Source: Candidatus Nanoarchaeia archaeon
Lineage (GTDB): Archaea; Nanobdellota; Nanobdellia; SCGC-AAA011-G17; JACPNG01
DNA: 64,000 nt
Assembly: GCA_028714375.1 (NCBI GenBank)
Contig: JAQTMK010000001.1
Location: 136,988-200,987 of the forward strand
Direction of reading: 5' to 3'
In this document: one piece after another, positions 4,040-63,717 of the stretch
Layout of the letters: each line of letters starts with the position of its first letter
Numbering within the stretch: the first letter of the stretch is position 1
The notes under the pieces: model-generated
The model's input: only the letters and a program-made list of their open reading frames with translations
Databases searched by the model: none
What the model was told of the DNA's origin: nothing
Position numbers and translations under genes: made by a program

Positions 4040-4069
4040 AAAAATAAAAAAAGAAAGAAGTATTTAAGG

Positions 4070-12297: not shown

Positions 12298-12369
12298 GGG
12301 CGAATAGTATAAAGGATAGTACACGGCTTTGCGGAAGCTGGAATCGGGGTTCAATTCCTCGTTCGCCCG
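12298..12369 (+). tRNA. tRNA-Arg (anticodon GCG)
   Basis: Cloverleaf folded by hand: acceptor GGGCGAA/TTCGCCC, D-arm GTAT...GTAC with GG in the loop, anticodon stem CGGCT/AGCTG with loop TTGCGGA, T-arm CGGGG-TTCAATT-CCTCG, discriminator G, no encoded CCA. Confidence 0.75.
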
Positions 12370-22859: not shown

Positions 22860-23339
22860 TTAAGCAACACTATACTTTCCAGATTCGAGTTTTACGTTTA
22901 CCGGTCTCAAGTCATCAAGATTGGATAAGACTACCCCAGAACTAATAAAATCATAACTCAAAACTTTACAAACCATAAATTTTTGTTCTTCAGTATTATA
23001 AACACAAATGCAGGATAATTCTTTGCACTGGATGTTTTTTTCTATCACCTTATCATCAAAAGCTTTCAAAGAACCTTCAGCTGAAAATTTATTCTTTGCA
23101 TATATTGTGTATTCATCGCTTATCTGCATCGGAATACTTGTTCCTTTGCCTTCTTCAAGTCCTTTTAATGTAGTATATAGATCGTTAAAACTGTTATCAG
23201 TTGCAGAATCCATTTCAACTTCATCAGGAATTAATGTTTTGTATAAATCTGTTAAAAATGTAGCTACAACCAAAGTTACAATAATACCTAAGATTAATAA
23301 GATAAGAAACTTTAAAGTCATTAAACCTCTTTTATTCAT
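22860..23339 (-). CDS. pilin-like protein with class III signal peptide
   Basis: MNKRGLMTLKFLILLILGIIVTLVVATFL; preceded by the duplicated promoter element. Confidence 0.55.
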   Translation of the reverse strand: MNKRGLMTLKFLILLILGIIVTLVVATFLTDLYKTLIPDEVEMDSATDNSFNDLYTTLKGLEEGKGTSIPMQISDEYTIYAKNKFSAEGSLKAFDDKVIEKNIQCKELSCICVYNTEEQKFMVCKVLSYDFISSGVVLSNLDDLRPVNVKLESGKYSVA

Positions 23340-23368
23340 TAAATTAAAATAAAAAAGAAATATATAAA
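23337..23368 (-). promoter_or_regulatory. duplicated promoter/start element, copy 1 (includes ATG of gene 22860-23339)
   Basis: Identical 32 nt CATTAAATTAAAATAAAAAAGAAATATATAAA. On the coding strand this is TTTATATA (TATA-box-like) about 22-29 nt upstream of the ATG. Confidence 0.6.
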
Positions 23369-23386
23369 CTTAATTAAAAATGAACT

Positions 23387-23722
23387 TTAGTAATTTACTG
23401 CCTTTTTATATTTATTTGATTTTAGTGGGGGATGAATTAAGTCGGGAAGGACATTATAATAGAACTTTGCCCAATAATCTTGGATAATCCTGTGTGAGTG
23501 GCCATTAAAGAAGCCAAGTTTTCTTACTTCCTCTTGTAATTTTATTTCAAGATCCCTGAGATACCCATCTACGATTGGTATTGATGGGATTTCTTCCCCC
23601 CCAGAAGAATAAGATATGTCCCTTTTAAATTCTGCTAAGATTTTATTTCTATTCTGATCAATAAACTTACAAAACTCCTCATAACAACTTTTCTCTAAAC
23701 TTTTAAGATTTGAATTATCCAT
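23387..23722 (-). CDS. hypothetical cytoplasmic protein inside the pilin-like operon
   Basis: 111 aa, no signal peptide; preceded by copy 2 of the duplicated promoter. Confidence 0.45.
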   Translation of the reverse strand: MDNSNLKSLEKSCYEEFCKFIDQNRNKILAEFKRDISYSSGGEEIPSIPIVDGYLRDLEIKLQEEVRKLGFFNGHSHRIIQDYWAKFYYNVLPDLIHPPLKSNKYKKAVNY

Positions 23723-23751
23723 TAAATTAAAATAAAAAAGAAATATATAAA
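23720..23751 (-). promoter_or_regulatory. duplicated promoter/start element, copy 2 (includes ATG of gene 23387-23722)
   Basis: Exact 32-nt match to 23337-23368. Confidence 0.6.
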
Positions 23752-32630: not shown

Positions 32631-34664
32631 ATGAGGTTTGATAAATCTATAATTTTCATAACCCTATTAATTCTATTTTCGTTTTCAGTTTCAGCAGAAA
32701 TTGGAACAAGCCCTGACAATTGTAAGGGAAAAGACTTAACCGACCATATTTTTAATGATAATTTAATTACAAATGGTTGGAATAATTTATACCAGCAGAT
32801 GCAGGTTAATGATGTTCATACAATCAGCTTCAAAGGTATAAGCAATGACAATCCAGATCCAATAACAGTAACCTATTCTTTGTTTTACTGTAAAAGAGCA
32901 TGTGATTTGAACGGAGATGGAAAAGTCACTGCAGCAGATGCATGTTCAGATCATTTAGTTCTTCAACAAAAAACAGTCATAGAAGCAAATTCTAAAAAAG
33001 ATATTACTATAAATTTCAAGCCAGCTCAGGAAGGTTGTTATCAGTTAGATTGGGCTGTTGAAAAAATTGAAAACTCTCAGTGTTCTTATTTAGATAAAAC
33101 CTACTGTGAGGATTGTACATTTTTGGCTTATCTTGTAGATACTTCATGTAAGGCAGGTTCAACCCAAACAAGAAAATGTGGTTACTCTGATGTTGGAGAA
33201 TGTAGTTATGGAACTAAAACTTTAACCTGTACAGCCCAGTCACAGTTAATTGGTCCAACAAGTTATTGGAAATATGGAATTTGCATTGGAGCAACCTATC
33301 CAACAACAGAAATCTGTGACCAGAAAGACAATGACTGTGATGGTTTAATCGATGAAGACAATGTTTGTGAAGTTCCAGAATGTGAAGATGGAGAAACACA
33401 AACACAGCAATGTGGAATAACTGATGTTGGAATTTGCGAATACGGACATAAAGAAAAAATCTGTGAGAATGGCTCATGGGGAAATTGGGGTGATTGTATT
33501 GGTGCCATTAATCCTTCAACAGAAATATGTAATCAGTTAGATGATGATTGTGATGGGTTGATAGATGAAGGCGATGTTTGCCCTCCAGAAGAATGTTACA
33601 CTAATGATGACTGTGATAATGGTTTGTATTGTGATGGTGAGGAAATCTGCATAGATAACGAGTGTTATTCAGGAACAGAAATTAATTGTAATTTATACAA
33701 TATTCCAGGAATAAATACTTGCTACAATAGTCCAGACAGCAATCCATACACATTAGATTATAGAAATGCATTTACTTCAACCTGTAACGAAGATTTAGAT
33801 ATGTGTACAATTGGAAGTAGCATAATATCTCATATTTGTTATTATGGTTGTGGAGCAGAATGTATTGATTCTTGTGAAAAAACAGAATGTGATTACTTAG
33901 ATGGTTGCTATGGAAATGATTACTATGATTACAGTGATGTTTCAAACCTATGTAATTCCTGTTTATGTAGTCATAATGAATGTGGTCTTCCAGTAATTTC
34001 TGAAAATGATCCAAGATGTGAACAACCAGAATGTACAGAAGGAGATATTGATATTGTTTCCTGTGGTATGACCGATGTTGGAGAATGCTCTTATGGTCAG
34101 AAACAAAGAATATGTATTGATGAAGAATGGACAGACTGGAGCGAATGCGTTGGAAGTGTAAATCCAACAACAGAAATCTGTGACCAAAAAGACAATGACT
34201 GTGATGGTTTAATCGATGAAGACAAAGTCTGTGAAATATGTGTTCTGAATAAAACCAGACTTGATGGGGAAAATGGATTTATTGATCACATAAATGAATT
34301 TACAAATGAAGACTTTACAAAAAATAAGATTGATTTCAAGGCTTGGGTTTCAAAATCAGACAAGTACACAGGATATGTTATAGTTTCTGTGACAGGAACA
34401 ACCACAGATGGTGGAAGACTTTCTTTGAAATTAAAAGGTAAAGTAAGAAACGTCTATGAAAATACCTGTGAAGCATTTAACGTTGAAAATTCCTGGTGGA
34501 GTTTAGCTACCTACAGAGCACCAAATTCCAAGAAAACAGAAAAAATCCATCTGGATAGCATCTGGTATGAATGGAACAGGGAAACTAATTTGTTAAATGT
34601 CTACGGAATTGGTCCTGACATTGACTTTGAAATAAACAACATTGAAATTGAATCAAAGTACTGA
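32631..34664 (+). CDS. secreted Cys-rich protein with MopE-like 'putative metal-binding' repeats
   Basis: Signal peptide; three ~60-aa repeats each ending C(D/N)QKDNDCDGLIDED; many paired Cys. Confidence 0.6.
   Translation: MRFDKSIIFITLLILFSFSVSAEIGTSPDNCKGKDLTDHIFNDNLITNGWNNLYQQMQVNDVHTISFKGISNDNPDPITVTYSLFYCKRACDLNGDGKVTAADACSDHLVLQQKTVIEANSKKDITINFKPAQEGCYQLDWAVEKIENSQCSYLDKTYCEDCTFLAYLVDTSCKAGSTQTRKCGYSDVGECSYGTKTLTCTAQSQLIGPTSYWKYGICIGATYPTTEICDQKDNDCDGLIDEDNVCEVPECEDGETQTQQCGITDVGICEYGHKEKICENGSWGNWGDCIGAINPSTEICNQLDDDCDGLIDEGDVCPPEECYTNDDCDNGLYCDGEEICIDNECYSGTEINCNLYNIPGINTCYNSPDSNPYTLDYRNAFTSTCNEDLDMCTIGSSIISHICYYGCGAECIDSCEKTECDYLDGCYGNDYYDYSDVSNLCNSCLCSHNECGLPVISENDPRCEQPECTEGDIDIVSCGMTDVGECSYGQKQRICIDEEWTDWSECVGSVNPTTEICDQKDNDCDGLIDEDKVCEICVLNKTRLDGENGFIDHINEFTNEDFTKNKIDFKAWVSKSDKYTGYVIVSVTGTTTDGGRLSLKLKGKVRNVYENTCEAFNVENSWWSLATYRAPNSKKTEKIHLDSIWYEWNRETNLLNVYGIGPDIDFEINNIEIESKY
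33300..33361 (+). repeat. 62-nt intragenic direct repeat, copy 1
   Basis: CCAACAACAGAAATCTGTGACCAGAAAGACAATGACTGTGATGGTTTAATCGATGAAGACAA; one mismatch to the copy at 34164-34225. Confidence 0.8.
34164..34225 (+). repeat. 62-nt intragenic direct repeat, copy 2
   Basis: Near-identical to 33300-33361. Confidence 0.8.
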
Positions 34665-43341: not shown

Positions 43342-43998
43342 ATGAGGAAAATAACAGTATTCATATTGGTTTTAGCATTGCTTTTGATATTTCCAGTAAG
43401 CGCAAAACTTACGGGACAAGCTAGAGGACAGGCTGTAATCAACGTTGACGTTGATGAAGGTAGCACAGAAGTAATCTCAAGAACTGTTTGGGTTAAGAAT
43501 GTAAATGATATTCCGGTTAATGTCGCAATTATTGCAATAGATGATATTGAAGACAGAACAGAAATAGAAGAACCTTCTTTTATACTTCAGCCAGGCCAGG
43601 AAAAAACAGTTAAATATTTATTGAAAATTTCCCAGCCAGGAAATTATTATGGAAAATTAAATATTGGTTTTTCTCCAGCAGATGGTTCTAAAGAAAATGG
43701 AGTAGGAATCTCATTAGCTATAACCGTTATTGCAGATGGTGAGGGTGAAGAATTTGTAAGTCCAGAACCTAATACTGAAGAAATCCCAGAAGATACAGAA
43801 GAAACTCCAGAAGACACAACCGATATCCCTCAGGAAGAAGACACAACTGATGGAGAAGGAGTAGATGTATTCGGAGGAGGACAAAATCCTGTAACACCTA
43901 AAACAAACATAAATTGGCCACTCATAATTTTCATAGGTTTACTTTTAATCGTAATCGCAGCAGGGGTGTTTGCTTTTTTAAGGGGAGGAAAAAAATGA
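43342..43998 (+). CDS. secreted protein with C-terminal TM anchor and basic tail
   Basis: Signal peptide; acidic PEDTEETPEDT linker; C-terminus WPLIIFIGLLLIVIAAGVFAFLRGGKK. Confidence 0.5.
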   Translation: MRKITVFILVLALLLIFPVSAKLTGQARGQAVINVDVDEGSTEVISRTVWVKNVNDIPVNVAIIAIDDIEDRTEIEEPSFILQPGQEKTVKYLLKISQPGNYYGKLNIGFSPADGSKENGVGISLAITVIADGEGEEFVSPEPNTEEIPEDTEETPEDTTDIPQEEDTTDGEGVDVFGGGQNPVTPKTNINWPLIIFIGLLLIVIAAGVFAFLRGGKK

Positions 43999-46900
43999 AG
44001 AAAGTAGTTTTTTTATTTGCTTTGTTATTAACAGTTTCATGTGTAAGTGCTTGGGATGTAGCTTATGTGGTTACTAACCCATCAACTGCAGCACAGGAAC
44101 CAATAACAGTGTTGGAAAACGAGGGATATAATGTAGAAGTTATTGATGATTCTGCATTACTAACAACAAATTTCAGTAATTATGATTTAATTGTTGTTGC
44201 AGATCAGAACTTTCCATATCCAGAAAGAATTCCAGTAACCTCCCACAGTACAGTAATTTTAAGTTCTAATGATGGTGATGTTTTAACTTGGGGTCTAAGT
44301 ACCTCAGTTGCAGATCAGACAAGCAGTCAACCAGAAAAAGTAGTTAATAATGATCCTACCAGTCCAATAACAGAAGGACTGCCCTCTGAAATTCAGGTTT
44401 ATACAACTGGAGGAGTTTCAGCAGGCCTGTCATACTTACCTTCTTCAGATAAAGCTGGAAAAATGAAGGTTATTGCTTCAACTTATTTCAGCAGCAATAT
44501 AAATGATGGAATAATTGCAACAGCATCTCCAGGAGATGTTTTAAAAATCTACAATAGTGGTTGGAAATACACAACCGTAAATTCAAGAATATGTTATTTT
44601 GGTATTAATACTCCAGCATACTGGACAAGCGATGCAGAAACATTATTCATTAATTGTGCAACATGGTCAGCATTAGGAGTAGATAATGATAATGATGGTT
44701 TCTACTCAGATGAAGACTGTGATGATACAAACGCAGATATTAATCCAGATGCAGAAGAAACCTGTAACGGAGTAGATGATAATTGTGATTTAATTATCGA
44801 TGAAGAAAACTCATTAGGATGTACTGATTATTACTATGATTTTGATCAGGATACTTATGGAGTATTCTTATCTAAGTGTTTATGTTCACCAAACGCATTT
44901 TATGATTCAGAAACAAACGATGACTGTAATGATAACAATATAAATATACATCCAGACGCACAGGAATTGTGTAATGGAATAGACGATAGTTGTGATGATA
45001 TCATTGATGAAGACTTAATTGAACCTTTGTCAGACAACCAAAAAGGAATCTGTAAAAATTCTGTAAAAATCTGTGAAGGAACTTCAGGATGGACAAATCC
45101 AGATTACACAGAACTGGAAGATTATGAAAATCCAGAATTAAGTTGTGATGGTTTAGATAATAACTGTGACGGAACAGTTGATGAAGATTTAGCAACAACT
45201 TATTATAAAGATTTAGATGAAGATACCTATGGAAGTAAAACAGTAACAATCCAGTCTTGTGATATTGTGGATGGTTATGTTGAAAACAATGATGATTGTA
45301 ATGATAATAATGCAGATATAAGTCCAGACGGAATTGAAGAATGTAATGGTATTGATGACAACTGTGACGGAGCCATCGATGAAGATGATATCTGTGAAAT
45401 AACAATTTATTATTGTGATGCAGATGCAGATTTACATTTAAGCTTGACACAATCAGGAACTTGTGATACCTATAACTGTGTTCCAACAGGATGTTCAACA
45501 ACACCCGGAGATGATTGTAATGACCATAATGCAAATATGTATTTAGGAAAAGCAGAAACCTGTGATGGTCTGGACAATGACTGTGATTATGTTATTGATG
45601 ATGGTGTAAAAACAACTTATTATCAGGATAAGGATGGAGATCTTTACGGAAATTCAGGAGTAACCAAACAGGCATGTTCTGCTCCAACAGGATATTTATT
45701 GGATAAGACAGATTGTAATGATAACTTTGCTACAATTCACCCAGGAGCAACAGAAACCTGTAATGGAATTGACGATGATTGTGATGGTTTGATTGATGAG
45801 GGAGGAGTTTGTGCAGTAAAGACTTACTATTGTGATGATGATTCAGACAGTTATCTAAGCTTAGATATCTCAGGAACATGTAACACCTATAATTGTGTTC
45901 CAGAAGACTGTTCAGAAACCAGCGGAACAGATTGTAACGACGATGATTCAGATATGTATCCAGGAAACATAGAAGTTTGTGATAACTTAGACAATGACTG
46001 TGATGGTTTAATTGATGAATCTCTTACACAAATAACAACTTGTGGACTAGGAGAATGTTCAGACAACACAGGAATAGAAACTTGTTCAGCAGGAGAATGG
46101 ATTAATGATACTTGTGATCCTTATGCTGGAGCAGTAGCTGAGACTTGTGATGGTTTAGATAACAACTGTGATGGTGAAACAGATGAAGGAGTAACTACAG
46201 AATATTATGAAGATTCAGATAATGATACCTATGGAGATGCATTAAGCATTTTAGATGCATGTTCTCTTCCAGCAGGTTACTCTGTAAATAATCTAGATTG
46301 TGATGATTCAAATGCAAATATGTATCCAGGAAATCCAGAAGTTTGTGATGGTGATGATAATGATTGTGATGGAACAATTGATGAAGATTTATCTGCACCA
46401 TTAAATACAAACCAAAATGGAGTATGTTTTGAATCAAATCAAACCTGTCAGGGAGAATTAGGATGGATCGATACTTATTCAACAATCTCAACTTATCAAG
46501 AAACAGAAGAAGCCTGTGACAGTTTAGATAATGATTGTGATGGAATAGTTGATGATGGTGTTAAAACAACATTCTATGAAGATTCAGATAATGATACTTA
46601 TGGAAATGCAACAAGCTCACAGGATGTATGTACTAAACCAACAGGTTATGTTTTAGATGATACTGATTGTGATGATAGTCAAAATACAATTTATCCTGGA
46701 GCTACAGAAGTTCCATACGATTCAATTGACCAAGATTGTAGTGGTGCTGATTTAACTGATGTGGATGCAGACGGATATGATTATACTACAGATTGCAATG
46801 ATAATGATCCAGATGTAAATCCTGGAGAAACAGAATCCTGTAACACAATTGATGATGATTGTGACGGAACAATTGATGAAGAAGATTCAACAGGATGTTC

Positions 46901-48476
46901 AGTATATTATTACGATGAAGATGCTGATGCCTATGGTACAAATGATGACAAATGTTTATGTGCAATAACTGGATATTATACAGCCTCAGTAAATGGAGAC
47001 TGTGATGATACAGCAGCTTCAATTAACCCAGGAGTTTCAGAAATCATCTACAATACAATAGATGATGATTGTAATTCACATACATTAGATGATGATTTAG
47101 ACCAGGATGGATATAATCATGATGTAGATTGTGATGAAACTAATAATAAGATTCATCCAGGTGCAACAGAGATTCCATACAATGGAATAGACGAAAATTG
47201 TAATGGATGGGATTTGGTTGATGTTGATAATGATGGTTACAGTGCTCCGCAAGTTGGAGGAACAGATTGTAACGATAATAATCCAGCAATAAATCCAGGA
47301 GTTTTAGAGATTCCATACGATGGAATCGATAATGATTGTAATCCATTAACTTTGGATGAAGATTTAGATCAGGATGGCTACAACCATAATGTAGATTGTG
47401 ATGATTTAGATCCATTAGTGCACCCAGGAGCAACAGAAATTCCAAATAATGGAAAAGATGATGATTGTAATTCACATACATTAGATAATGATGCAGATCA
47501 GGATGGAATTCAGGATCCAGATGATAATTGTGTAATTCTTTACAATCCAAATCAGGAAGATCAGGACCATGACGGAATTGGAGATGTTTGTGATTCAGAC
47601 ATAGATGGCGATGGAATATTAAACGAAGATGATAATTGTATAACAACTCCAAACCCAGACCAATTAGATATTGACTCAGATGGAATTGGAGATGTCTGTG
47701 ATTTGGATAAAGATGGAGATGGAATAAATAATAATAAAGATAATTGTCAGAGCATCTTTAACCCAGAACAGGAAGATGTAGATCATGATGGTTTAGGAGA
47801 TGTCTGTGATGATGATAACGATAATGATGGAATTCCAGACAGCGAAGATAACTGTTCAGATGTTTACAATCCAGATCAGTTAGATACAGATTCAGACGGT
47901 TTGGGAGATAAATGTGATGACGATGATGATAACGATGGTCTTGATGACCACGACGATAACTGTCCAATAAATTACAACCCAGGCCAGGAAGACAGAGACA
48001 GCGATAGGAAAGGAGACGTCTGTGATGTAGATTGGGATAATGATAGTGTTCCAGATGCATCAGATAACTGTCCATATATTAAAAACAGAGACCAAGCCGA
48101 TATAGACAAAGACGGAATTGGAAACGTGTGTGATGATGTAGACGGTAGAATAAAAGAAATAATCAGCCATGAATTTAGCCTAAGCTCAGTTTCATTGGAA
48201 GATGAAAAAATAAATCCTGGTGAAAACCTTGACTTATATGTAAAATTAAAGAACAGAGGAAACCAAGACGAAGACGGTATTAAAGTTCAGGCAACAATAA
48301 TGGAGACTGGCCAAATATCAACTCCAAGTTATGTTGACCTGGAAAAAGGAGAGTCTCAGTCAACATGGATAACCATAAAAACAACCAAAATAAAACCAGG
48401 AACATACACATTAAGAGTAATGGCAGAAAACAGCAAAGAACATGATGTAGCTTACCTAACCTTTAAGGTTATGTAA
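43995..48476 (+). CDS. giant secreted protein (1493 aa): MopE-like Cys-rich metal-binding repeats, thrombospondin type-3 Ca-binding repeats, CARDB-like C-terminal domain
   Basis: Start at MKKVVFLFALLLTVSCVSA (AGGGGAGG ribosome-binding site; ATGA overlap with the upstream gene). At least 15 repeats of the type DCDDTNADINPDAEETCNGVDDNCD(G)LIDE; about 10 TSP3-like repeats (DNCxxxxNPDQxDxDxDGxGDxCD); C-terminal INPGENLDLYVKLKNRGNQDEDGIKV beta-sandwich. Confidence 0.65.
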   Translation: MKKVVFLFALLLTVSCVSAWDVAYVVTNPSTAAQEPITVLENEGYNVEVIDDSALLTTNFSNYDLIVVADQNFPYPERIPVTSHSTVILSSNDGDVLTWGLSTSVADQTSSQPEKVVNNDPTSPITEGLPSEIQVYTTGGVSAGLSYLPSSDKAGKMKVIASTYFSSNINDGIIATASPGDVLKIYNSGWKYTTVNSRICYFGINTPAYWTSDAETLFINCATWSALGVDNDNDGFYSDEDCDDTNADINPDAEETCNGVDDNCDLIIDEENSLGCTDYYYDFDQDTYGVFLSKCLCSPNAFYDSETNDDCNDNNINIHPDAQELCNGIDDSCDDIIDEDLIEPLSDNQKGICKNSVKICEGTSGWTNPDYTELEDYENPELSCDGLDNNCDGTVDEDLATTYYKDLDEDTYGSKTVTIQSCDIVDGYVENNDDCNDNNADISPDGIEECNGIDDNCDGAIDEDDICEITIYYCDADADLHLSLTQSGTCDTYNCVPTGCSTTPGDDCNDHNANMYLGKAETCDGLDNDCDYVIDDGVKTTYYQDKDGDLYGNSGVTKQACSAPTGYLLDKTDCNDNFATIHPGATETCNGIDDDCDGLIDEGGVCAVKTYYCDDDSDSYLSLDISGTCNTYNCVPEDCSETSGTDCNDDDSDMYPGNIEVCDNLDNDCDGLIDESLTQITTCGLGECSDNTGIETCSAGEWINDTCDPYAGAVAETCDGLDNNCDGETDEGVTTEYYEDSDNDTYGDALSILDACSLPAGYSVNNLDCDDSNANMYPGNPEVCDGDDNDCDGTIDEDLSAPLNTNQNGVCFESNQTCQGELGWIDTYSTISTYQETEEACDSLDNDCDGIVDDGVKTTFYEDSDNDTYGNATSSQDVCTKPTGYVLDDTDCDDSQNTIYPGATEVPYDSIDQDCSGADLTDVDADGYDYTTDCNDNDPDVNPGETESCNTIDDDCDGTIDEEDSTGCSVYYYDEDADAYGTNDDKCLCAITGYYTASVNGDCDDTAASINPGVSEIIYNTIDDDCNSHTLDDDLDQDGYNHDVDCDETNNKIHPGATEIPYNGIDENCNGWDLVDVDNDGYSAPQVGGTDCNDNNPAINPGVLEIPYDGIDNDCNPLTLDEDLDQDGYNHNVDCDDLDPLVHPGATEIPNNGKDDDCNSHTLDNDADQDGIQDPDDNCVILYNPNQEDQDHDGIGDVCDSDIDGDGILNEDDNCITTPNPDQLDIDSDGIGDVCDLDKDGDGINNNKDNCQSIFNPEQEDVDHDGLGDVCDDDNDNDGIPDSEDNCSDVYNPDQLDTDSDGLGDKCDDDDDNDGLDDHDDNCPINYNPGQEDRDSDRKGDVCDVDWDNDSVPDASDNCPYIKNRDQADIDKDGIGNVCDDVDGRIKEIISHEFSLSSVSLEDEKINPGENLDLYVKLKNRGNQDEDGIKVQATIMETGQISTPSYVDLEKGESQSTWITIKTTKIKPGTYTLRVMAENSKEHDVAYLTFKVM

Positions 48477-56670: not shown

Positions 56671-56835
56671 AAAGATTTATTTTTTCTTTTTTAGGTTTAT
56701 AATTTTTTAATCAGAAATATTTATAAAGGGAAAGGACAGTATTTTATTATATCTGTTTGTTTTCTAAGAGGTGAGGACGAGTTAGTTCTATAAACTTTAA
56801 TTTAAATGGGTTGGAAAACCCGAAAGGAGTTAAAA

Positions 56836-57048
56836 ATGAGCGGATTGATTGTTCAATTAGAATGCCCTGATTGTGGAGAGAAAAAAGAGGTTTCATTTAC
56901 AGACCAAGAATGTAGGAAAATATTCCGGCTATATAGCCTAATTAGTCTTGGTACCTATTGTAAAACCTGCAAATCCAAGATGGATATTGTAAATGAAACA
57001 GAAGTAAGGAATCAAATATCTAAATATCGTTCTAAAGGGCCACAATAA
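56836..57048 (+). CDS. small Zn-ribbon protein
   Basis: Start at MSGLIVQLECPDCG (AAAGGAG ribosome-binding site); CPDC...CKTC. Confidence 0.4.
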   Translation: MSGLIVQLECPDCGEKKEVSFTDQECRKIFRLYSLISLGTYCKTCKSKMDIVNETEVRNQISKYRSKGPQ

Positions 57049-57076
57049 GGGATTTATTAAACGTATCTAAGTTCTA

Positions 57077-57094
57077 GGGGGAAACCCCTTTTTT
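57077..57094 (+). terminator. short GC hairpin plus T-tract
   Basis: GGGG-GAAA-CCCC followed by TTTTTT. Confidence 0.35.
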
Positions 57095-57157
57095 CCAAAG
57101 TAAGTATCTACATATATAACCTTAAGATATTTAAACTAATCCAAAATTTAAATAATA

Positions 57158-58936
57158 ATGGAATCAAGGGAAATAGCAACCAAATTTGTAAAATTCTTTG
57201 AAAAGAATAATCATAAGATTATAGAATCATCTTCCTTATTGCCTGCAGATAAAACAGTTTTATTAACAACCGCAGGTATGCAGCAGTTTGCTCCATATTT
57301 CAAAGGAGAAAAAAATCCTGAAAAAGATTTCAAATCAAGAACCTTGACTTCAGTTCAGAAATGTTTCAGGACTTCAGACTTGGAATCTGTTGGAGATGAA
57401 ACCCATCTAACTTTCTTTGAAATGTTGGGTAATTTTTCAATAGGAGATTATTTTAAAAAAGATGCAATAAATTATGCATTAAAATTTCTGATAGAAGACC
57501 TGAAATTAGATAAAAATAGAATTTCAATTACAGTTTTCGGAGGAAATAATTTAATACCTAAGGACTTTGAAGCAATTGAACTATGGAAAAAACAGGGAAT
57601 TGCAGAAGAAAAAATATTTGAGTTCGGAGAAAAGGAAAACTTTTGGGGTCCTCCAGGACCAACAGGTCCATGTGGCCCTTGTTCTGAATTGCATTATGAT
57701 TTAACTAAAAAACCATGTAATAAAGGAAAAAAATGCGGACCAAACTGTGAATGTGGCAGGTTCTTAGAAATATGGAACTTGGTATTTATGGAATATAATT
57801 TTACAGACAAACAAAAATATGAAAATCTCCCACTAAAAAATATTGATACTGGGATGGGATTGGAAAGAATTTCTATGATAGTCCAGAACAAAAAAACCCT
57901 TTTTGAAACAGATATTTTCCAGAAAATCATAAATAATATCCAAAAAATCGGATACAAAAGAACCGAAGAAGCAAAGAGGATGGAGAGAATAATTGCAGAC
58001 CATCTAAGGGGATCTGTATTCTTAATCTCCGACGCTGTTCGTCCATCAAACATAGAACAGGGTTATATTTTAAGAAGAGTCTTAAGAAAATCAATAATTT
58101 ATTTGAACTTGTTAGGAGCAGAACCAAATAAAATATTAGATTTAACAGAACTAATAATAAATGAATACAAAACCGAATACAAGGACTTACAAAAAAATAA
58201 AAAAGAAATCTTAACAATAATTAAAGAAGAAAAAAACAAGTTCCAGAAATCCTTGGATAAAGGTTTTGTGGAAATTAAGAAAATAATTGAAGATACAAAA
58301 AAACAAAAGAAAAAACAATTACCAACAAAAGAAATCTTCCAGCTGTATGATACTTATGGTTTCCCATTTGAAATAACAAAAGAAATTGCAAATAAGGAAA
58401 AATTGGAAGTTAATGAAGAAGAATTCTATGACATGTTCAAATCTCATCAGGAAGTTTCAAGAGCAGGAGTTGAAAAGAAATTTGGTGGTGTTGGGGACTT
58501 TGGAGAACAGGTAGCAAGACAGCACACAGCAACTCATTTATTGCACCAGGCTTTAAGGGAAGTCTTAGGCAAGGATGTCAGGCAGGCAGGTTCTGATTTA
58601 ACTCCAGAAAGAATAAGATTTGATTTTAATTTTAACAGGGCTTTGACAGAAGAAGAAAGAAAAAAGATTGAAGATATTGTAAATAAGAAAATAAAAGAAT
58701 CAATACCAGTAAAATGTGAAACTAAAAAGTTCAAAGATGCACAAAAAGAAGGATTCTTGGCTTTCTTCAGGGATAAATACGGAGAAGAGGTCTCAACATA
58801 TTCTATTGGGGATTTCTCCAAGGAAGTTTGTGCTGGACCTCATGTTCAAAACACAAAAGAAATAGGTAAATTTAGAATACTAAAGGAAAAATCTTCTGCT
58901 TCAGGAATAAGAAGAATTAAAGCTGTTTTGGAATAA
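57158..58936 (+). CDS. alaS: alanyl-tRNA synthetase, bacterial-type, catalytic plus editing domains only (no C-Ala domain)
   Basis: Class II AlaRS signature FFEMLGNFSIGDYFK, TAGMQQF, and editing-domain HTATHLLHQALREVLG ... CAGPHVQNT ... IRRIKAV ending at the stop. 592 aa. Confidence 0.8.
   Translation: MESREIATKFVKFFEKNNHKIIESSSLLPADKTVLLTTAGMQQFAPYFKGEKNPEKDFKSRTLTSVQKCFRTSDLESVGDETHLTFFEMLGNFSIGDYFKKDAINYALKFLIEDLKLDKNRISITVFGGNNLIPKDFEAIELWKKQGIAEEKIFEFGEKENFWGPPGPTGPCGPCSELHYDLTKKPCNKGKKCGPNCECGRFLEIWNLVFMEYNFTDKQKYENLPLKNIDTGMGLERISMIVQNKKTLFETDIFQKIINNIQKIGYKRTEEAKRMERIIADHLRGSVFLISDAVRPSNIEQGYILRRVLRKSIIYLNLLGAEPNKILDLTELIINEYKTEYKDLQKNKKEILTIIKEEKNKFQKSLDKGFVEIKKIIEDTKKQKKKQLPTKEIFQLYDTYGFPFEITKEIANKEKLEVNEEEFYDMFKSHQEVSRAGVEKKFGGVGDFGEQVARQHTATHLLHQALREVLGKDVRQAGSDLTPERIRFDFNFNRALTEEERKKIEDIVNKKIKESIPVKCETKKFKDAQKEGFLAFFRDKYGEEVSTYSIGDFSKEVCAGPHVQNTKEIGKFRILKEKSSASGIRRIKAVLE
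58905..58932 (+). repeat. 28-nt direct repeat, copy A (contains the alaS 3' end)
   Basis: GAATAAGAAGAATTAAAGCTGTTTTGGA; exact match to 60501-60528. Confidence 0.85.
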
Positions 58937-58965
58937 CTAAAAAAGAAGAAGATTGAATTAGTAAA

Positions 58966-60516
58966 ATGATAATTAAGGACATAAACAAGAGAAAAAATAT
59001 AAAGATTGCAATGGTTCAACCAGATGCAGGGCTAAGTGTCACAAATACAGATACCTATGCAGTTCCACTAGGCCTCGGTTCCATAGCGACTTATTGTAAG
59101 CAAAAACATCCAGAAATAGATATCCTGCTTATAGGAGCATATACAGATATGCCTCATGAAGAACAAATGAAAAAAATTTTGGAATATAATCCAGATATAT
59201 TGGCTATTTCATCAACAATCTCCAGTCAGGAAAATGCATATGATATTGCAAAAAAGGCAAAAGAACAAAACAAAAATATAATAATTGTATTTGGTGGAGT
59301 AAATTCTACAAGCCTATATGAACAAATATTAAAAAATCGTGATTTTGTAGATGCTATTATCTTATTTGATGGAGAAGAAGCATTCGCAGAGGTAGTCGAT
59401 AGAGTCAAGAAAAATAAATCTTTTGAGGGAATAAATAATTTAGCCTACAAAGATAAGAAGGGACTTCATATTGATAAAAATAAAATAACAATAAAAATTC
59501 CTTCATTATGTAAGATTCTTGATAAGAATCCACCAATAGATTATTCTGTGTTTGATATGAATACTTTTCTTAAAAAAACAGAGATGAGAGGATTTGGAAG
59601 AGCAATCAGTTATTTTGGGGGAAAGGGTTGTATTAAAAGAAGGGGTTTTTTTAAGGAAAAGATCTATACCCTTAAAGAATATGAAGACTTGGTAAACAAT
59701 ATGGGGGCATGTTCTTTTTGTGGGAGAAACGAATTAGGGTATAGGATATTACCTTGGTCTCTTGAAAAGGAGCTAATTAATTATTTGTACGAGAAATATG
59801 GAGTAAGAGGATTATTTAATGTACAAGATGTTGTAAGCCTGGATGAAGAACAGGGAGATCCAAAATGGAAAAACACTTGGTTTAGATTTTTCATAATGGC
59901 TGGCCAAGTAACTCAAAAAAATATTGATATTCTTAAGAAAAAATATTCTCCAAACTTAGTATTACAAATAGGGGTAGAATCTGTTGATCCAAATATGCTC
60001 AAAGAATTTGGAAAGTCGCCAGAATTTACCAGAGAATATTACTTAAAAAATTTAGACTTAATGGAAAAAAATGGGATTCAGGCCCATTATACCTTTGTTT
60101 TGGGAGGGAGTAATGAAACTAGAGAATCCCTCAAAAAAACTGGAGATTTTATTAAAGAAATTGTAAAGAGAAAAAACGTAACTTGGATAGGCGCAAGCCC
60201 ATTAATTGTGCTTCCAGGATCGCCATATTTCAGAATGCTTAGCGAGAAAGAAAAAAAACTAAAGGATAAAGATTTATTTGATGTCTCTGAATTGCATAGA
60301 TTATTCCTTCGTCATTTTGCACCAAAAATCACAAGAGAAGATGTATTAAACATTATTAAAGATTGTTTTAGTTATGCTAAATTAATAAGAAGCGACTTGA
60401 TATTAGATGGAAAAGGCTTAACCAAAGAAGAAGAGAAATTTGTGGGCTCATATAGGCCATACACACATAAAGAAGGTTCGTGGACATTCAATTTTGTCCA
60501 GAATAAGAAGAATTAA
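58966..60516 (+). CDS. B12-binding-domain / radical-SAM-like protein (tentative)
   Basis: N-terminal IAMVQPD...YAVPLGLGSIATY resembles the cobalamin-binding domain of B12-dependent radical SAM enzymes. Cys cluster GKGC...CSFC is non-canonical, so the assignment is weak. Confidence 0.4.
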   Translation: MIIKDINKRKNIKIAMVQPDAGLSVTNTDTYAVPLGLGSIATYCKQKHPEIDILLIGAYTDMPHEEQMKKILEYNPDILAISSTISSQENAYDIAKKAKEQNKNIIIVFGGVNSTSLYEQILKNRDFVDAIILFDGEEAFAEVVDRVKKNKSFEGINNLAYKDKKGLHIDKNKITIKIPSLCKILDKNPPIDYSVFDMNTFLKKTEMRGFGRAISYFGGKGCIKRRGFFKEKIYTLKEYEDLVNNMGACSFCGRNELGYRILPWSLEKELINYLYEKYGVRGLFNVQDVVSLDEEQGDPKWKNTWFRFFIMAGQVTQKNIDILKKKYSPNLVLQIGVESVDPNMLKEFGKSPEFTREYYLKNLDLMEKNGIQAHYTFVLGGSNETRESLKKTGDFIKEIVKRKNVTWIGASPLIVLPGSPYFRMLSEKEKKLKDKDLFDVSELHRLFLRHFAPKITREDVLNIIKDCFSYAKLIRSDLILDGKGLTKEEEKFVGSYRPYTHKEGSWTFNFVQNKKN

Positions 60517-60528
60517 AGCTGTTTTGGA
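60501..60528 (+). repeat. 28-nt direct repeat, copy B (contains the stop of 58966-60516)
   Basis: Exact match to 58905-58932. In the alaS frame it encodes RIRRIKAVLE*. Confidence 0.85.
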
Positions 60529-60533
60529 GTAGA

Positions 60534-60863
60534 TTAATCTTTAATTACATCATAGAGAATTGTACCAAAACCATATGGACTTAATTCTGGACAATCTTCA
60601 AGTTTAATTCTAAGGTCTTTTAATTTATTAATTTCCCCAGATTGTTTAGTCTCATATTTAATAATCGTATCTACAAGGTCTATTTGCCCGGTGCGACTAA
60701 GACATCTCCCAGACTCTCCTGATTCATGATTTAATAAAATTAATCCACTTATTTTTGCAATAATTTCTTTTGAGCTAAAAAATAAATCTTTATCTTTCAA
60801 TGTTAGATAAATCGGATTAGTTGGGTCAGATATTGAAGCTATGAAAGTAGTATATTGATCCAT
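60534..60863 (-). CDS. hypothetical protein
   Basis: 109 aa, no recognisable motif. Confidence 0.4.
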   Translation of the reverse strand: MDQYTTFIASISDPTNPIYLTLKDKDLFFSSKEIIAKISGLILLNHESGESGRCLSRTGQIDLVDTIIKYETKQSGEINKLKDLRIKLEDCPELSPYGFGTILYDVIKD

Positions 60864-60916
60864 GATTTTATATAAAAAACAATAGTTATAAACATTTATG
60901 AAAGATAAAATATAGA

Positions 60917-61960
60917 TTAATTAGATAGCACTTTGGAAACTAATCTATAGAAATTTTCAAGTCCCTTTATTGAGGCAGTTTCATTATTTGTATGATAATT
61001 GAATGTGGGAATTTGAATCGTAGCCCCATTAATATCTCCTTTTGTTTCCTCTACAATCCTACCCAATTCAGTTGTACCTAATTTTTTGGGTTTTTGACCT
61101 TCTGTTACTAATTTTTTATTTTGTCCCTCAATAAACTCATCTTTCATTTCATAAGGAATTAATAGTTCATCACATTTATTTTTTAAAAATCTAACTAAAT
61201 TAGGATTAAATACCCCATGTTGATCTTTGTTTCTTAACACAACCAATCCATTTTCAATCTTATCCCTTTCAGTATAAGGTGTTGTATCTAGATTAATAAT
61301 TTCTTTAGTACTCAAATTTAATTTTTCCAATGCCTTCAAAACATATTTCCAACTATTTCCTATCTCTTCTTCAGTTGAAAAGATAATATTTCCATCATAC
61401 CCGTCCTTTACTAGTTGATAGATTAAAGCAATGCTGATAGCATTATCAATTTGAGAATCTATGAATGGTCCATTGATTTTCAGATTAGATAGATAAGAAA
61501 CTGGTAAATTTGATTCAAGTTTTTTTATTCCATCAACATCAAATTTTAAAGTTTTAGTTTCTAGATCATAATCAAATGATTTGACAAACCCTTCTTCAAG
61601 ACGATTTCTTATCCAATAAGAATAAACTAAACAATTTAAAAATCGTTTGCCCGCTTCCTGAAACATTTTTTCAGAAGAAGGATTATCTTTTTTATAAAAT
61701 TTATTTGCATTAAATGCTGCATATTCAAAATCAAGATTCGAATTTATTACGATACCATGTCTATCAATATGAGCAGTTAAAACTTTTGGATTTCTTATAT
61801 TTTTTTTAGAGATTATCAAAAATCTTTCATCAAATTTAATATCACAACCAAGATTTGCAAAGTCTTCACTTAGATGATTTCTAAATGAATCTTCATATCT
61901 TACTACAGATGGGATTTGAACATATTCTTCCAATTTGTTGATGATTGGTTGAATTTCCAT
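60917..61960 (-). CDS. M42/M20-like metallopeptidase (tentative)
   Basis: N-terminal pattern LEEYVQIPSV...VLTAHIDRHGIVI resembles M42 aminopeptidase/FrvX (l.aHmDeiG); length 347 aa fits. Confidence 0.4.
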   Translation of the reverse strand: MEIQPIINKLEEYVQIPSVVRYEDSFRNHLSEDFANLGCDIKFDERFLIISKKNIRNPKVLTAHIDRHGIVINSNLDFEYAAFNANKFYKKDNPSSEKMFQEAGKRFLNCLVYSYWIRNRLEEGFVKSFDYDLETKTLKFDVDGIKKLESNLPVSYLSNLKINGPFIDSQIDNAISIALIYQLVKDGYDGNIIFSTEEEIGNSWKYVLKALEKLNLSTKEIINLDTTPYTERDKIENGLVVLRNKDQHGVFNPNLVRFLKNKCDELLIPYEMKDEFIEGQNKKLVTEGQKPKKLGTTELGRIVEETKGDINGATIQIPTFNYHTNNETASIKGLENFYRLVSKVLSN

Positions 61961-62011
61961 AGAATAAAACTTAGTTTTTAGTTTATAAAGAAAATTGAAC
62001 TAGAAAACAGA

Positions 62012-62815
62012 TTAAGAATAATACAAAATATGCCTGTTAACAGCCTGTTTCTCAGCTTTTTTTGAAAATATTTCTTTGATTTTCATGTGAAGTCTGGGAT
62101 CAGAATATTGTTTCCCAGTTATAGCAGAAGCTAATTTTTTATACTCAATTGAAACCGGATTTTTTTCTCTGAAAATAGTCAAAGGAACATTTGAAGCAAC
62201 TGCTTTTAATGCATCATCATGTTCTCTTAAAACAGCAATCACAGGGATACCAACGCTTTTTTCAATTTCTTCAAGTTTTAATTCAAAGTTCTTTCCTCTA
62301 ACTTTATTTAATATCAGTCCAGTAATAGGAACATTTTTCTGTTTGGCAATCTTAATGGTTTTCAATGTACAGTTTAATGTAGGAACATCAGGGGTTGTAA
62401 CAACAAAAATCTCATCAGCAGCGACGAGAGTGGAAACAATCTCTTCGTTAAGTGAAGGGCTTGAGTCAATCAATATATAATCATAATACTTTTTGATCTG
62501 ATTTAATTTTTTCTTTAGTGCAAATGGATCTTTTATTCTTCTGGCAAGTAAAGTAGCTGGGATAACATGTAATCCGGAAGCTTCATGCTCATGAACAACG
62601 TCTTTAATGTCTAATTTATCATTCAAAACATCATGTATTGTCCCTTGAGGATCATTTAAACCTAAATGTGCTCCCAAGTTAGGTGCAGAAAAATTAGCAT
62701 CAACGATTAAAACTCTTTGATTGCAGTCTTTGGCCAAAGCAGCCCCTAAAGAAACAACTGTAGAGGTCTTTCCTACCCCTCCTTTTATTGAAATCACACC
62801 TATTGTTTTTGTCAT
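62012..62815 (-). CDS. ParA/MinD-family P-loop ATPase
   Basis: Deviant Walker A ISIKGGVGKTSTVVSLG, plus Walker A' and B-like motifs. Confidence 0.8.
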   Translation of the reverse strand: MTKTIGVISIKGGVGKTSTVVSLGAALAKDCNQRVLIVDANFSAPNLGAHLGLNDPQGTIHDVLNDKLDIKDVVHEHEASGLHVIPATLLARRIKDPFALKKKLNQIKKYYDYILIDSSPSLNEEIVSTLVAADEIFVVTTPDVPTLNCTLKTIKIAKQKNVPITGLILNKVRGKNFELKLEEIEKSVGIPVIAVLREHDDALKAVASNVPLTIFREKNPVSIEYKKLASAITGKQYSDPRLHMKIKEIFSKKAEKQAVNRHILYYS

Positions 62816-62851
62816 CTTACCTAATCTAGGATTCTGGATTTATAAATCTTT

Positions 62852-63253
62852 TTATAAGCTTGCAAGTTTTGCTTTAAGCAAGTCCATATCAGACTGCAGT
62901 TTATCCACTTTTTTCTGTTTTTTGCCAGGTTCTTTTAATATATCAGCATCATTAAAGCTGGCAGCTTTTTTCTTGAATTTTTTAATATCAATTATCTGAT
63001 CCTTGTCAATATGTTGCTGATGTTTTTCCAATTCACCGATATCAACCTTTGGAAGTTTTAATATTTCATTGAACTCAATCTTTATTTCATTGAAATTCCT
63101 TTTGCACTGATTTAAATAAACTAATTTTTCTTTTCTAACCTTTATTACATTTTCATAGTCTTTTAGAAATTGAATTATGTCAATAGCTCCACCTAATAAT
63201 TCTTTTCTGGAATTTACAGGGCTAGGAATCTGGACATATTTTAACTCGCTCAT
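62852..63253 (-). CDS. coiled-coil protein (hypothetical)
   Basis: 133 aa, heptad-rich; immediately upstream of the MinD-like gene. Confidence 0.4.
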   Translation of the reverse strand: MSELKYVQIPSPVNSRKELLGGAIDIIQFLKDYENVIKVRKEKLVYLNQCKRNFNEIKIEFNEILKLPKVDIGELEKHQQHIDKDQIIDIKKFKKKAASFNDADILKEPGKKQKKVDKLQSDMDLLKAKLASL

Positions 63254-63255
63254 TC

Positions 63256-63717
63256 TTATTCCTCAAACAAAGTAGAGTCTATGGACAATAATCTTTCTTT
63301 TAGTGTTTCTAGATCATCGTGCCATTTTTGTAATTGCATGTCTTCTTCTTTTTTAACATCTTCTAACTTGGCGATTATTTCCTGAGTTTCTTCTATCTTT
63401 CTTTTCATATCGTTGATGGATTTTATAACCATCTTGTACTTGTCTAATTTAATGAAAACCGGTCTTTCTTCTTTCATTGCTCTTTTAACATCTTCGTCCA
63501 TGTCAGGACTGAATTTAGGACCAAATGTCCTGCTATCATCTGTGGATTTTCTTACTGGAATTTCAAAATCATCAAATAATCCAACACCTTTTTTAATATC
63601 ACTCATGTCTTTATCCATGATTGGAGAATCATAATCTTCTTTTGGAATGTCTGGAAAACTAATTTGAGGTTGTTCCTCTCTTGACATCTCTTTTTTCTTT
63701 TTTTTGAAAAGACCCAT
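63256..63717 (-). CDS. coiled-coil protein (hypothetical)
   Basis: 153 aa; 2-nt gap to the next gene; KKKKK near the N-terminus. Confidence 0.4.
   Translation of the reverse strand: MGLFKKKKKEMSREEQPQISFPDIPKEDYDSPIMDKDMSDIKKGVGLFDDFEIPVRKSTDDSRTFGPKFSPDMDEDVKRAMKEERPVFIKLDKYKMVIKSINDMKRKIEETQEIIAKLEDVKKEEDMQLQKWHDDLETLKERLLSIDSTLFEE

Follow-up and report, generated by a model that had tools for sequence, protein, structure and literature searches.

The 3' end of alaS in a tiny DPANN archaeon, known from a metagenome-assembled genome, stands duplicated on either side of a single radical-SAM gene, and this repeat is most likely an ordinary recombination scar and not the mark of a mobile element. 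Our main reading, to which we give roughly even odds (a probability of about 0.5), is that the repeat records a single recombination event, driven by homology and not site-specific, in a gene slot whose content varies from strain to strain. The event would have been either a single crossover or an unequal crossover between two alleles of the alaS tail that had different genes downstream. The locus (Table 1) lies within the 64,000-nt stretch of DNA that we analysed, hereafter the window, and it reveals no new kind of genetic element.

Table 1. Features of the alaS locus and other features of the window discussed in the text (window coordinates).
Feature	Coordinates	Strand	Description
RadA	14728-15681		Pfam Rad51, E 9e-90
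Second, analogous footprint	23337..23751	-	32-nt exact repeat, 23337-23368 and 23720-23751
alaS	57158..58936	+	592 aa; Pfam tRNA-synt_2c and tRNA_SAD
Repeat copy 1	58905..58936	+	Last 10 alaS codons and stop; 28 nt exact, then A-TA-A
Spacer, alaS stop to radical-SAM ATG	58937..58965	+	29 nt, read from the sequence
B12-binding radical-SAM gene	58966..60516	+	516 aa; Pfam B12-binding and Radical_SAM
Small hairpin TGGACA-N8-TGTCCA	60481..60500	+	Inside the C-terminal tail of the radical-SAM gene
Repeat copy 2, orphan alaS tail	60501..60532	+	28 nt exact, then G-TA-G; ...IRRIKAVLE* in the alaS frame
109-aa ORF, convergent on the orphan alaS tail	60534..60863	-	No assigned family
M42-like peptidase homologue	60917..61960	-	347 aa
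ParA/MinD-type ATPase	62012..62815	-	Pfam; conserved right-hand border of the variable slot

The original prediction described perfect 28-nt direct repeats that bracket one gene at the end of an intact alaS, a footprint of the insertion type, and this anatomy was confirmed. The 28-mer GAATAAGAAGAATTAAAGCTGTTTTGGA occurs exactly twice in the window, on the + strand at 58905-58932 and 60501-60528 (a spacing of 1596 nt, or 3 x 532), and no further copy with up to three mismatches was found there. Two copies are far above chance expectation: none of 100 dinucleotide shuffles contained such a match, and direct repeats within 5 kb reached at most 20 nt in 100 second-order Markov simulations of the window. 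Nor is the 28-mer a generic repeat, being without a third copy in the window and absent from IMG/VR viral contigs. The base flanking each copy differs on either side, and the repeat extends to 31-32 nt when two A/G transitions are allowed (GGA-A-TA-A versus GGA-G-TA-G). The 60 nt on either side of the copies share 28% identity, which is the random expectation, and the duplication therefore has sharp borders. Neither dyad symmetry nor a hairpin was found in the repeat, the 31-nt form of which folds to 0 kcal/mol; no inverted repeat pairs the two ends of the insert (58937-58965 and 60470-60500), and a composition check returned no GC or skew anomaly over the insert. An independent Logan contig (L081, run SRR22315509) matches window positions 57448-63400 (5,953 bp) at 100% identity and passes unbroken through both copies.

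The alaS gene encodes a short alanyl-tRNA synthetase of the bacterial/CPR type that ends right after the editing-domain motif GIRRIKAVLE*, encoded by copy 1. Beyond two Nanoarchaeia relatives, its nearest homologues are Patescibacteria AlaRS proteins of about 590-600 aa at 50-56% identity. As had been predicted, copy 2 reads RIRRIKAVLE* in the alaS frame and also supplies the stop of the radical-SAM gene, in whose frame it reads ...FVQNKKN* and gives the last five codons and the TAA at 60514-60516. Because the repeat reaches 32 nt once the two transitions are allowed, each copy closes with E and a stop in the alaS frame, and the Glu codon is kept in both through a synonymous difference (GAA TAA and GAG TAG). 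The chance of finding a purine and a stop directly after the 28-mer in unrelated sequence is ~0.04. The sharp bounds, the stop that is reached and the retained Glu codon thus make both copies resemble genuine alaS ends. Both differences between the copies fall in the last 4 of the 32 nt; this clustering has a likelihood of a few per cent under any model, and so it is a weak discriminator that does not separate them strongly.

The intervening 516-aa gene had been called B12-binding/radical-SAM-like, and both Pfam domains matched above their gathering thresholds; matches to NCBIfam class-B radical-SAM models were all below cut-off, and no equivalog reached it. An alternative start at 59011 corresponds to a 501-aa call (P0001). 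Across the family the canonical CxxxCxxC is replaced by an invariant C222...C249xxC252, and the window protein retains every invariant residue of a 35-sequence alignment; the gene is intact. It is about 43% identical to the canonical family and 50% to the homologue P0002, and among 5.8 billion proteins we found no homologue above 50% identity apart from the same genome. It belongs to a divergent subfamily of a DPANN-wide family. The family is common across DPANN archaea, where it is normally paired with a TrmB-like regulator, and is absent from the viral contigs of IMG/VR; the window copy has no TrmB partner. Alignment of the C-terminal tail with that of the closest homologue holds as far as the joint (WTFNFVQ|NKKN* against WKFRFAS*), which places the joint no more than 1-2 codons from the native stop. 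The small hairpin has its 3' end exactly at this novel joint, 60500|60501. Because the 29-nt spacer contains no TATA-like box, and nothing like the promoter at 23337-23368 described below, the radical-SAM gene is probably co-transcribed with alaS.

A metagenome scan with the single radical-SAM protein as query gave no match, and a scan with the family alignment gave 28 loci, none with an adjacent alaS or ParA and none with flanking repeats. Flanking repeats were likewise not found among 22 other radical-SAM loci, with one apparent exception (L099). The repeats at L099, of about 113 nt, were considered as a second repeat-flanked unit and rejected: within 11 kb there are three copies of their core, which overlaps a recurring promoter-like motif, and L099 is therefore a multi-copy intergenic element and not a footprint. 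No tRNA or Rfam family was found at the L099 repeat.

The interval between alaS and the convergent ParA/MinD gene has different content in each of three related Nanoarchaeia genomes (3/3), with syntenic flanks. It holds a single 72-aa ORF in L082, genes for CYTH, TrmB and radical-SAM proteins in L001, and the radical-SAM gene, the 109-aa ORF and the M42-like peptidase gene in the window; the ParA/MinD gene is syntenic in L001 and L082 at 72-73% nucleotide identity. The original prediction looked to related genomes for an uninterrupted junction downstream of alaS. This was borne out in part: the two closest relatives each have a single alaS tail and downstream genes unlike those of the window, and no empty-site strain was found. 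Exact-protein look-ups with alaS, the radical-SAM protein, the 109-aa ORF and a 159-aa ORF returned the same Logan contig or nothing, and with it no strain variant or empty site. Sliding-window identity gave no breakpoint signal in alaS or ParA against the two relatives, which are too distant for a sensitive test. Both repeat copies sit at junctions typical of compact genomes, 29 nt separating alaS from the radical-SAM gene and 1 nt separating the orphan alaS tail from the convergent stop of the 109-aa ORF; the corresponding junctions are 2 nt between alaS and CYTH and a 4-nt radical-SAM/ParA overlap in L001, and a 4-nt overlap in L082. Slot content that differs in every relative fits better with homology-driven, strain-to-strain recombination than with site-specific integration.

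In agreement with the prediction that no integrase is present, a Pfam scan of 40 ORFs, which include 38 of the 41 window ORFs of at least 180 aa, detected no domain of an integrase, a transposase or Cas1, and no cas gene or CRISPR array was seen. Homologous-recombination machinery is encoded in the window in the form of RadA. The 109-aa ORF had no Pfam, NCBIfam or PHROG match, and neither PHROG nor NCBIfam linked the inserted gene or its neighbours to viruses or to defence. Outside its own genome, the M42-like peptidase has no homologue above 56% identity, and the best ones all come from Woesearchaeota-like sources. Two candidate traces of the event were rejected. Similarity to a CYTH gene start after the alaS stop proved to be of low complexity only. 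The AGAATAA microhomology between the ParA 3' end TTAAGAATAATAC, which all three genomes share, and the joint CCAGAATAAG is unsupported as an illegitimate crossover site, because the preceding three nucleotides in the window are TCC and not the ParA stop TTA.

The window contains a second, analogous footprint. Here a 32-nt exact repeat, consisting of a TATA-like promoter plus ATG (23337-23368 reads TTTATATA...ATG), brackets one 111-aa gene (23387-23722), to which it donates an in-frame start codon, and the start of the next gene (22860-23339) also comes from it. Homologues of the 111-aa protein, similar to it in length, form 14 clusters. This footprint is the mirror image of the alaS-tail repeat, with no core motif in common between the two. 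Such an arrangement would arise naturally from an incoming gene with the same boundary sequence, and it is very unlikely as a target-site duplication.

We propose that two parental versions of the slot were joined. One would have carried alaS (tail ...GAA TAA), 29 nt and then the radical-SAM gene; the other would have carried alaS (tail ...GAG TAG), 1 nt, and then the convergent 109-aa ORF, the M42-like gene and ParA. DNA with the first version would have recombined into a chromosome with the second, transfer presumably having run in that direction. The DNA may have been a circularised fragment that entered by a Campbell-type single crossover through the ~30-nt alaS tail, or there may have been homologous exchange in alaS and one illegitimate joint, made from the end of the radical-SAM gene to a site lying 28 nt before the stop of the resident alaS. 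Both routes would stack the downstream gene sets in tandem and leave two alaS tails, the upstream one completing a working alaS and the downstream orphan happening to supply the last five codons and stop of the radical-SAM gene. In well-studied systems a homology of only 28-32 nt recombines inefficiently, and to our knowledge recombination in DPANN archaea has never been studied. Neither parental arrangement was found among sampled sequences, in which the nearest homologues are 50% (radical-SAM) and 56% (M42) identical, so the donors would be unsampled. In E. coli, experiments showed that a circle with a short segment of homology gives exactly such a duplication-flanked insertion by single crossover (PMC3240628), and in archaea homologous recombination works on tracts that are very short (PMC3367456).

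The sharp-bordered target-insert-target structure could instead have arisen if resident sequence was duplicated during insertion, giving a 32-nt duplication that acquired its two transitions later. A ~30-nt staggered double-strand break might have been filled in, or replication might have switched templates to a foreign gene, copied it and resumed on the original template about 30 nt upstream; the 6-bp hairpin ending at the joint could stall replication. Both footprints in the window are ~32 nt with the same + strand polarity, and they share the order of left copy, short spacer and an ORF that ends or begins in the right copy, as such a process might leave them. We nevertheless consider this explanation unlikely, as the insert must be almost exactly one ORF, preceded by 29 nt and followed by nothing, both substitutions must lie among the final 4 nt of the repeat, and an ATG-less, promoter-less 111-aa ORF must land in frame behind a resident ATG, which is very unlikely. 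Neither a cas gene nor a CRISPR array was seen in the window as a source of wide staggered cuts, and we know of no enzyme that makes cuts staggered by about 30 nt except Cas1-Cas2 at CRISPR repeats. A conjecture that goes further, and that we hold to be very improbable, is a trans-acting DPANN mechanism, with no recombinase gene in cis, that inserts promoter-less or terminator-less single genes exactly at gene boundaries and duplicates ~30 nt. If it were true, the newcomer would borrow a neighbour's promoter and ATG or its stop, the alaS-tail/radical-SAM and promoter-ATG/111-aa units of the 64-kb window would be the first examples, and the system would be an integron-like or Cas1-like 'gene-slot' system. 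Copy 2 might also be functional, as a shared terminator or RNA-stability signal, or might derive from a short ectopic gene conversion without gene insertion. The repeat does contain a short T-run (GCTGTTTTGG) at the 3' ends of two co-directional genes, and the repeated promoter and ATG of the second footprint are plainly functional. However, no structure is predicted in the alaS-tail repeat, four Ts are a weak archaeal termination signal, and a signal needs neither 28 identical bases nor the alaS frame, Glu codon and stop; gene conversion requires prior similarity, and the flanks are at random identity. Relatives also lack a second copy. Both ideas are highly implausible.

The original prediction itself favoured an att-site-like duplication, left by an integrative element or a site-specific cassette, and this interpretation was not supported. 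In this reading the 28-32-nt alaS tail would be the att-like target of a recombinase encoded elsewhere, which mobilised the cassette in trans, and the 1.6-kb unit could excise as a circle. Direct repeats that regenerate the 3' end of a housekeeping gene are the classic att geometry, and archaeal att sites are 13-243 bp long and in a few cases lie in protein-coding genes (PMC8371274). The alaS/ParA slot is also an insertion hotspot, and a second single-gene unit with ~32-nt repeats lies in the same window. Against this, no integrase, transposase or Cas1 domain was detected in the 40 scanned ORFs, the repeat has no symmetry or structure, the two repeats of the window have no common core motif, and neither the 28-mer nor the radical-SAM family occurs in IMG/VR. 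Repeats flank none of the 22 other radical-SAM loci (0/22), and the family, a widespread DPANN gene, is normally a fixed chromosomal pair with its TrmB-like regulator, which speaks against a mobile cassette. We regard mobilisation in trans as distinctly improbable. Nor does a decayed element account for a single gene between the copies, since everything else would have been lost with both ends untouched. To an assembly artefact, in which strain variants, or a chromosome and a small circle, were threaded through a shared k-mer, we give almost no credence. In a metagenome-assembled genome such as this one, repeats as long as the k-mer are a classic cause of mis-joins, but the independent contig is identical through both copies (Logan uses k = 31), and any k of at least 30 resolves the links from alaS to the radical-SAM gene and from there to the 109-aa ORF because each copy has a different base on either side. 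Moreover, the junction of the radical-SAM end and the alaS tail must occur in reads for any assembler to yield it.

The locus can be compared with known systems. As in Campbell-type duplication-insertions, exemplified by duplications of lacZ segments in E. coli (PMC3240628), a direct duplication flanks the insert, the resident gene is intact and a dedicated recombinase is unneeded; the duplicated segment is part of the resident gene, and similarity is sharply lost outside it. Unlike in the E. coli study, the homology is 28-32 nt and not 109-950 bp (PMC3240628), and both the circle and its origin are what we infer here. Homology-facilitated illegitimate recombination (HFIR) is the mechanism thought to build T6SS effector-immunity and Rhs/CDI gene arrays, and the slot resembles such arrays (V. 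cholerae T6SS effector-immunity genes and Rhs/CDI orphan 3' ends) in its conserved upstream anchor gene, in new genes beside the anchor with old ones displaced downstream, and in the orphan 3' piece left behind (PMC5361080). Unlike classical HFIR, which usually deletes recipient DNA (PMC3240628), the event left a duplication, and unlike those of toxin-immunity arrays the window genes are metabolic or without assigned function.

Other systems share less with the locus. At the attL/attR sites of archaeal tyrosine recombinases of the SSV, pNOB8 and pTN3 types, as at this locus, the 3' end of a conserved gene is restored by direct repeats tens of bp long (PMC8371274); unlike in those elements, there is here a single gene between the repeats, with no integrase, element body, symmetric core or tRNA target. 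The flanking direct repeats do restore the target gene, as an integrative element would, but we found no recombinase inside or adjacent, no core site with inverted arms, and no recurrence of the 28-mer in IMG/VR or of a close homologue of the radical-SAM protein in another genome among the 5.8 billion proteins. Beyond the 6-bp stem there is no imperfect palindrome at the ends of the unit as in an integron cassette, and no integrase. No terminal inverted repeats or transposase of a transposon, IS or casposon were found, and the duplication is 28-32 nt as against 2-15 bp. Casposon target-site duplications are about 14-15 bp. A duplication of ~28-32 nt is within the range of CRISPR repeats, as in Cas1-Cas2 spacer integration; unlike the products of Cas1-Cas2 or a casposon, the insert is 1.56 kb (or 0.35 kb at the second footprint) and not spacer-sized, and it comes with no cas genes, array or terminal inverted repeats.

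The alaS-tail repeat offers a clean, datable trace of gene-content change in very small DPANN genomes. Conserved alaS and ParA/MinD genes frame a slot whose contents differ in each related genome, and the scar would be a sign that at least one addition to it came by short-homology recombination and not by a mobile element. A radical-SAM gene that is usually coupled to a regulator stands here without its TrmB partner, behind the transcription unit of an essential gene. The 28-nt direct repeats should make this gene precisely deletable by recombination or slippage, and they predict a precise deletion polymorphism in reads from the population.

The window carries the 28-mer GAATAAGAAGAATTAAAGCTGTTTTGGA in exactly two places, 58905-58932 (copy 1) and 60501-60528 (copy 2), as the original prediction had it, with a spacing of 1596 nt (3 x 532). 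No third match was found in the window even with three mismatches allowed, none arose in dinucleotide shuffles (n=100), and 100 Markov-2 simulations of the window produced direct repeats of at most 20 nt within 5 kb. Similarity between the copies extends to 32 nt with two A/G transitions (...GGA A TA A vs ...GGA G TA G), and the 60 nt on each side of this stretch are 28% identical, which is exactly the random expectation. Both copies end, via synonymous differences, in a Glu codon and a stop, an outcome that 4 unrelated bases following the 28-mer would give by chance ~4% of the time. The two mismatches cluster at one end of the repeat; because such clustering is unlikely under every model, it does not discriminate between models.

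Read in the alaS frame, copy 2 encodes the predicted RIRRIKAVLE*, and in the reading frame used by the ORF between the copies it gives QNKKN and a TAA, so the bracketed gene does take its stop codon from copy 2. Both Pfam domains are present, in keeping with the B12-binding/radical-SAM-like identity proposed for that gene. Window 57448-63400, both copies included, is matched at 100% identity by a Logan contig of run SRR22315509, and a k of at least 30 resolves the linkage because the flanking bases of the two copies differ. The arrangement is therefore real, and an assembly artefact, which this independent contig contradicts, is extremely improbable.

The window is archaeal, encoding aIF2-alpha, aRF1, RadA, RPA and GINS, and its nearest records are 'Candidatus Nanoarchaeia' MAGs. 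Its G+C content is ~30%, with no compositional anomaly over the insert. The AlaRS is short (592 aa), stopping directly after the editing domain, and is of the bacterial type without a C-Ala domain. It is 83% and 78% identical to the enzymes of two Nanoarchaeia relatives; beyond these, the best matches are Patescibacteria (CPR) proteins of the same short type (50-56% identity), which suggests that the gene may have passed from CPR to DPANN. Elsewhere in the window, large proteins at 32631-34664 and 43914-48476 carry many near-identical Cys-rich DxDCDG-type repeats, which explain its other long direct repeats (e.g. 38 nt at 33324/34188 and 31 nt at 47060/47456). A Pfam Anti-Pycsar Apyc1 match of metallo-beta-lactamase fold (12536-13291; E 4.5e-19, 69.3 bits, cut-off 50 bits) adjoins tRNA-Arg (12298-12369), the window's sole tRNA gene.

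Three related genomes, that of the window included, have the same flanks: to the left, LeuRS, an ArsR-like gene and a 422-aa membrane protein leading to alaS; to the right, a convergent ParA/MinD gene. The content of the slot between alaS and ParA differs in all three. In the comparison with related genomes that the original prediction called for, the two relatives have a single alaS tail with other genes downstream. No homologue above 50% identity for the radical-SAM protein, or above 56% for the M42-like protein, was found outside this genome, and any donors are therefore unsampled. The stretch just 5' of alaS is likewise variable among the three genomes. An IMPDH gene adjoins ParA in L001 (11610-13121) and L082 (12973-14466) and is missing there in the window (62815-62852).

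Features of the two repeat-bracketed loci and of the regions flanking alaS in the window and in two related Nanoarchaeia genomes
Feature	Location	Strand	Description
alaS	57158-58936		copy 1 is its end, reading GIRRIKAVLE*
Radical-SAM ORF	58966-60516		Pfam B12-binding and Radical_SAM domains
Pilin-like gene, 159 aa	22860-23339	-	started by downstream repeat copy
ORF, 111 aa	23387-23722	-	started by upstream repeat copy; sole gene bracketed
Slot, window			divergent radical SAM, orphan alaS tail, 109-aa ORF (-), M42-like peptidase (-)
Slot, L001 (JAQTOC010000006.1)			CYTH, TrmB (-), canonical radical SAM, whose stop overlaps the ParA stop
Slot, L082 (JAQTMY010000001.1)			one 72-aa membrane ORF
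5' of alaS, window	56700-57150		80-aa zinc-ribbon ORF
5' of alaS, L001	4042-5960		92-aa Cys-rich ORF and 539-aa PEP-utilising protein
5' of alaS, L082	9192-9968		92-aa and 149-aa ORFs

The radical-SAM family is widespread in Woesearchaeota-, Pacearchaeota- and Nanoarchaeia-like contigs. A well conserved TrmB-like regulator is divergently paired with it in L001 and in 24 of 28 metagenome loci (in one of these, L095, the match is only 29% identical), and in three of the remaining four the upstream DNA is too short to judge. Apart from L095, the regulators across L085-L111 are 57-79% identical to that of L001, and the two genes form a tight module (L001 8348-10690; L085-L111). No TrmB homologue is present in the window, where the radical-SAM gene has lost its partner. 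Canonical members share ~64% mutual identity; the window protein reaches only ~43% against them and 50% against P0002, its nearest relative, and retains every invariant residue of a 35-sequence alignment, so it is an intact member of a divergent subfamily. The family has no canonical CxxxCxxC; its invariant cysteines are spaced Cx26CxxC (GKGC...CxFCGRNE; C222, C249 and C252 in the window protein). Because no TATA-like box such as occurs at other sites in the window is present in the 29-nt alaS-radical SAM spacer, the gene is probably read through from alaS.

Judged from sequence, both copies look to sit in junctions native to such compact genomes: alaS-29 nt-ATG at copy 1, and alaS tail-1 nt-stop of the convergent ORF at copy 2, with 2 nt and 4 nt at the comparable junctions of L001 and L082. 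Only one junction looks new, that of the radical-SAM tail with the alaS tail at 60500|60501. C-terminal alignment (WKFRFAS* in the nearest homologue vs WTFNFVQ|NKKN* in the window) places this joint no more than one or two codons from the native stop, and a hairpin (TGGACA-N8-TGTCCA, 60481-60500) ends exactly at it.

A similar footprint is formed by a 32-nt exact direct repeat with copies at 23337-23368 and 23720-23751, extending to 41 nt if 2 mismatches are allowed; on the minus strand the repeat comprises a TATA-like promoter and an ATG. The bracketed 111-aa gene is a real one, since 14 clusters of homologues of similar length exist for its protein. It takes its in-frame start from the repeat, mirroring the way in which copy 2 provides the radical-SAM gene with a stop. 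Under target-site duplication, an ORF lacking its own ATG would here have had to insert in frame directly after a resident one; no such coincidence is needed if the incoming gene brought that boundary sequence with it. Across ~220 kb of other DPANN loci, no boundary duplication of this sort was seen.

The original prediction of an insertion footprint holds; its interpretation as an att site or integrative-element remnant is not supported. Archaeal att sites can match this length; what defines them is an integrase-bearing element, and most lie in tRNA genes (PMC8371274). In agreement with the integrase-free insert first described, the 40 ORFs scanned yielded no integrase, transposase or Cas1 domain. 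A site-specific cassette mobilised in trans is unlikely, as only one gene lies between the copies, the alaS-tail repeat has no dyad symmetry or predicted structure, neither the 28-mer nor the radical-SAM family occurs in IMG/VR, and 22 other radical-SAM loci lack flanking repeats of at least 16 nt. An apparent exception, the metagenome locus L099, was rejected, its repeat being a multi-copy intergenic element (3985-4097, 7629-7740, about 10697, also 6478 and 6982) of about 50-110 nt with a promoter-like TTATTTAAAC motif and a GGTGTTCTGTCCGGTGTGGG core; it lies at the 3' flanks of several genes on a Woesearchaeota-like contig and matches neither a tRNA nor an Rfam family. Functional duplication or gene conversion is very improbable given a repeat without structure and the missing second copy in relatives. 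Duplication of resident sequence by a staggered break or template switch deserves somewhat more weight, at perhaps one chance in a handful, its weaknesses being the 23337/23720 footprint and how closely the insert corresponds to a single ORF.

The best explanation, to which we assign a probability of about 0.5, is that homology drove recombination between two forms of this slot, whose content varies among strains. One parent would have carried alaS(GAA TAA)-radical SAM and the other alaS(GAG TAG)-109aa-M42-ParA. Both gene sets would be stacked, and two alaS tails left, whether a circularised fragment entered by one crossover at the ~30-nt alaS tail or homologous exchange in alaS was combined with one illegitimate joint at the radical-SAM end. 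RadA is encoded in the window, such duplications are known experimentally from a single crossover via a short shared segment (PMC3240628), and very short tracts suffice for archaeal recombination (PMC3367456). The outcome resembles T6SS and Rhs loci, where arrays beside a conserved anchor gene contain orphaned 3' fragments (PMC5361080). A boundary-targeting gene-insertion mechanism acting in trans is improbable, and would be of high interest if true. Most likely, the alaS-tail duplication adds one more example to a familiar class of recombination scars, and it records how the gene slot next to alaS has turned over in a DPANN lineage.
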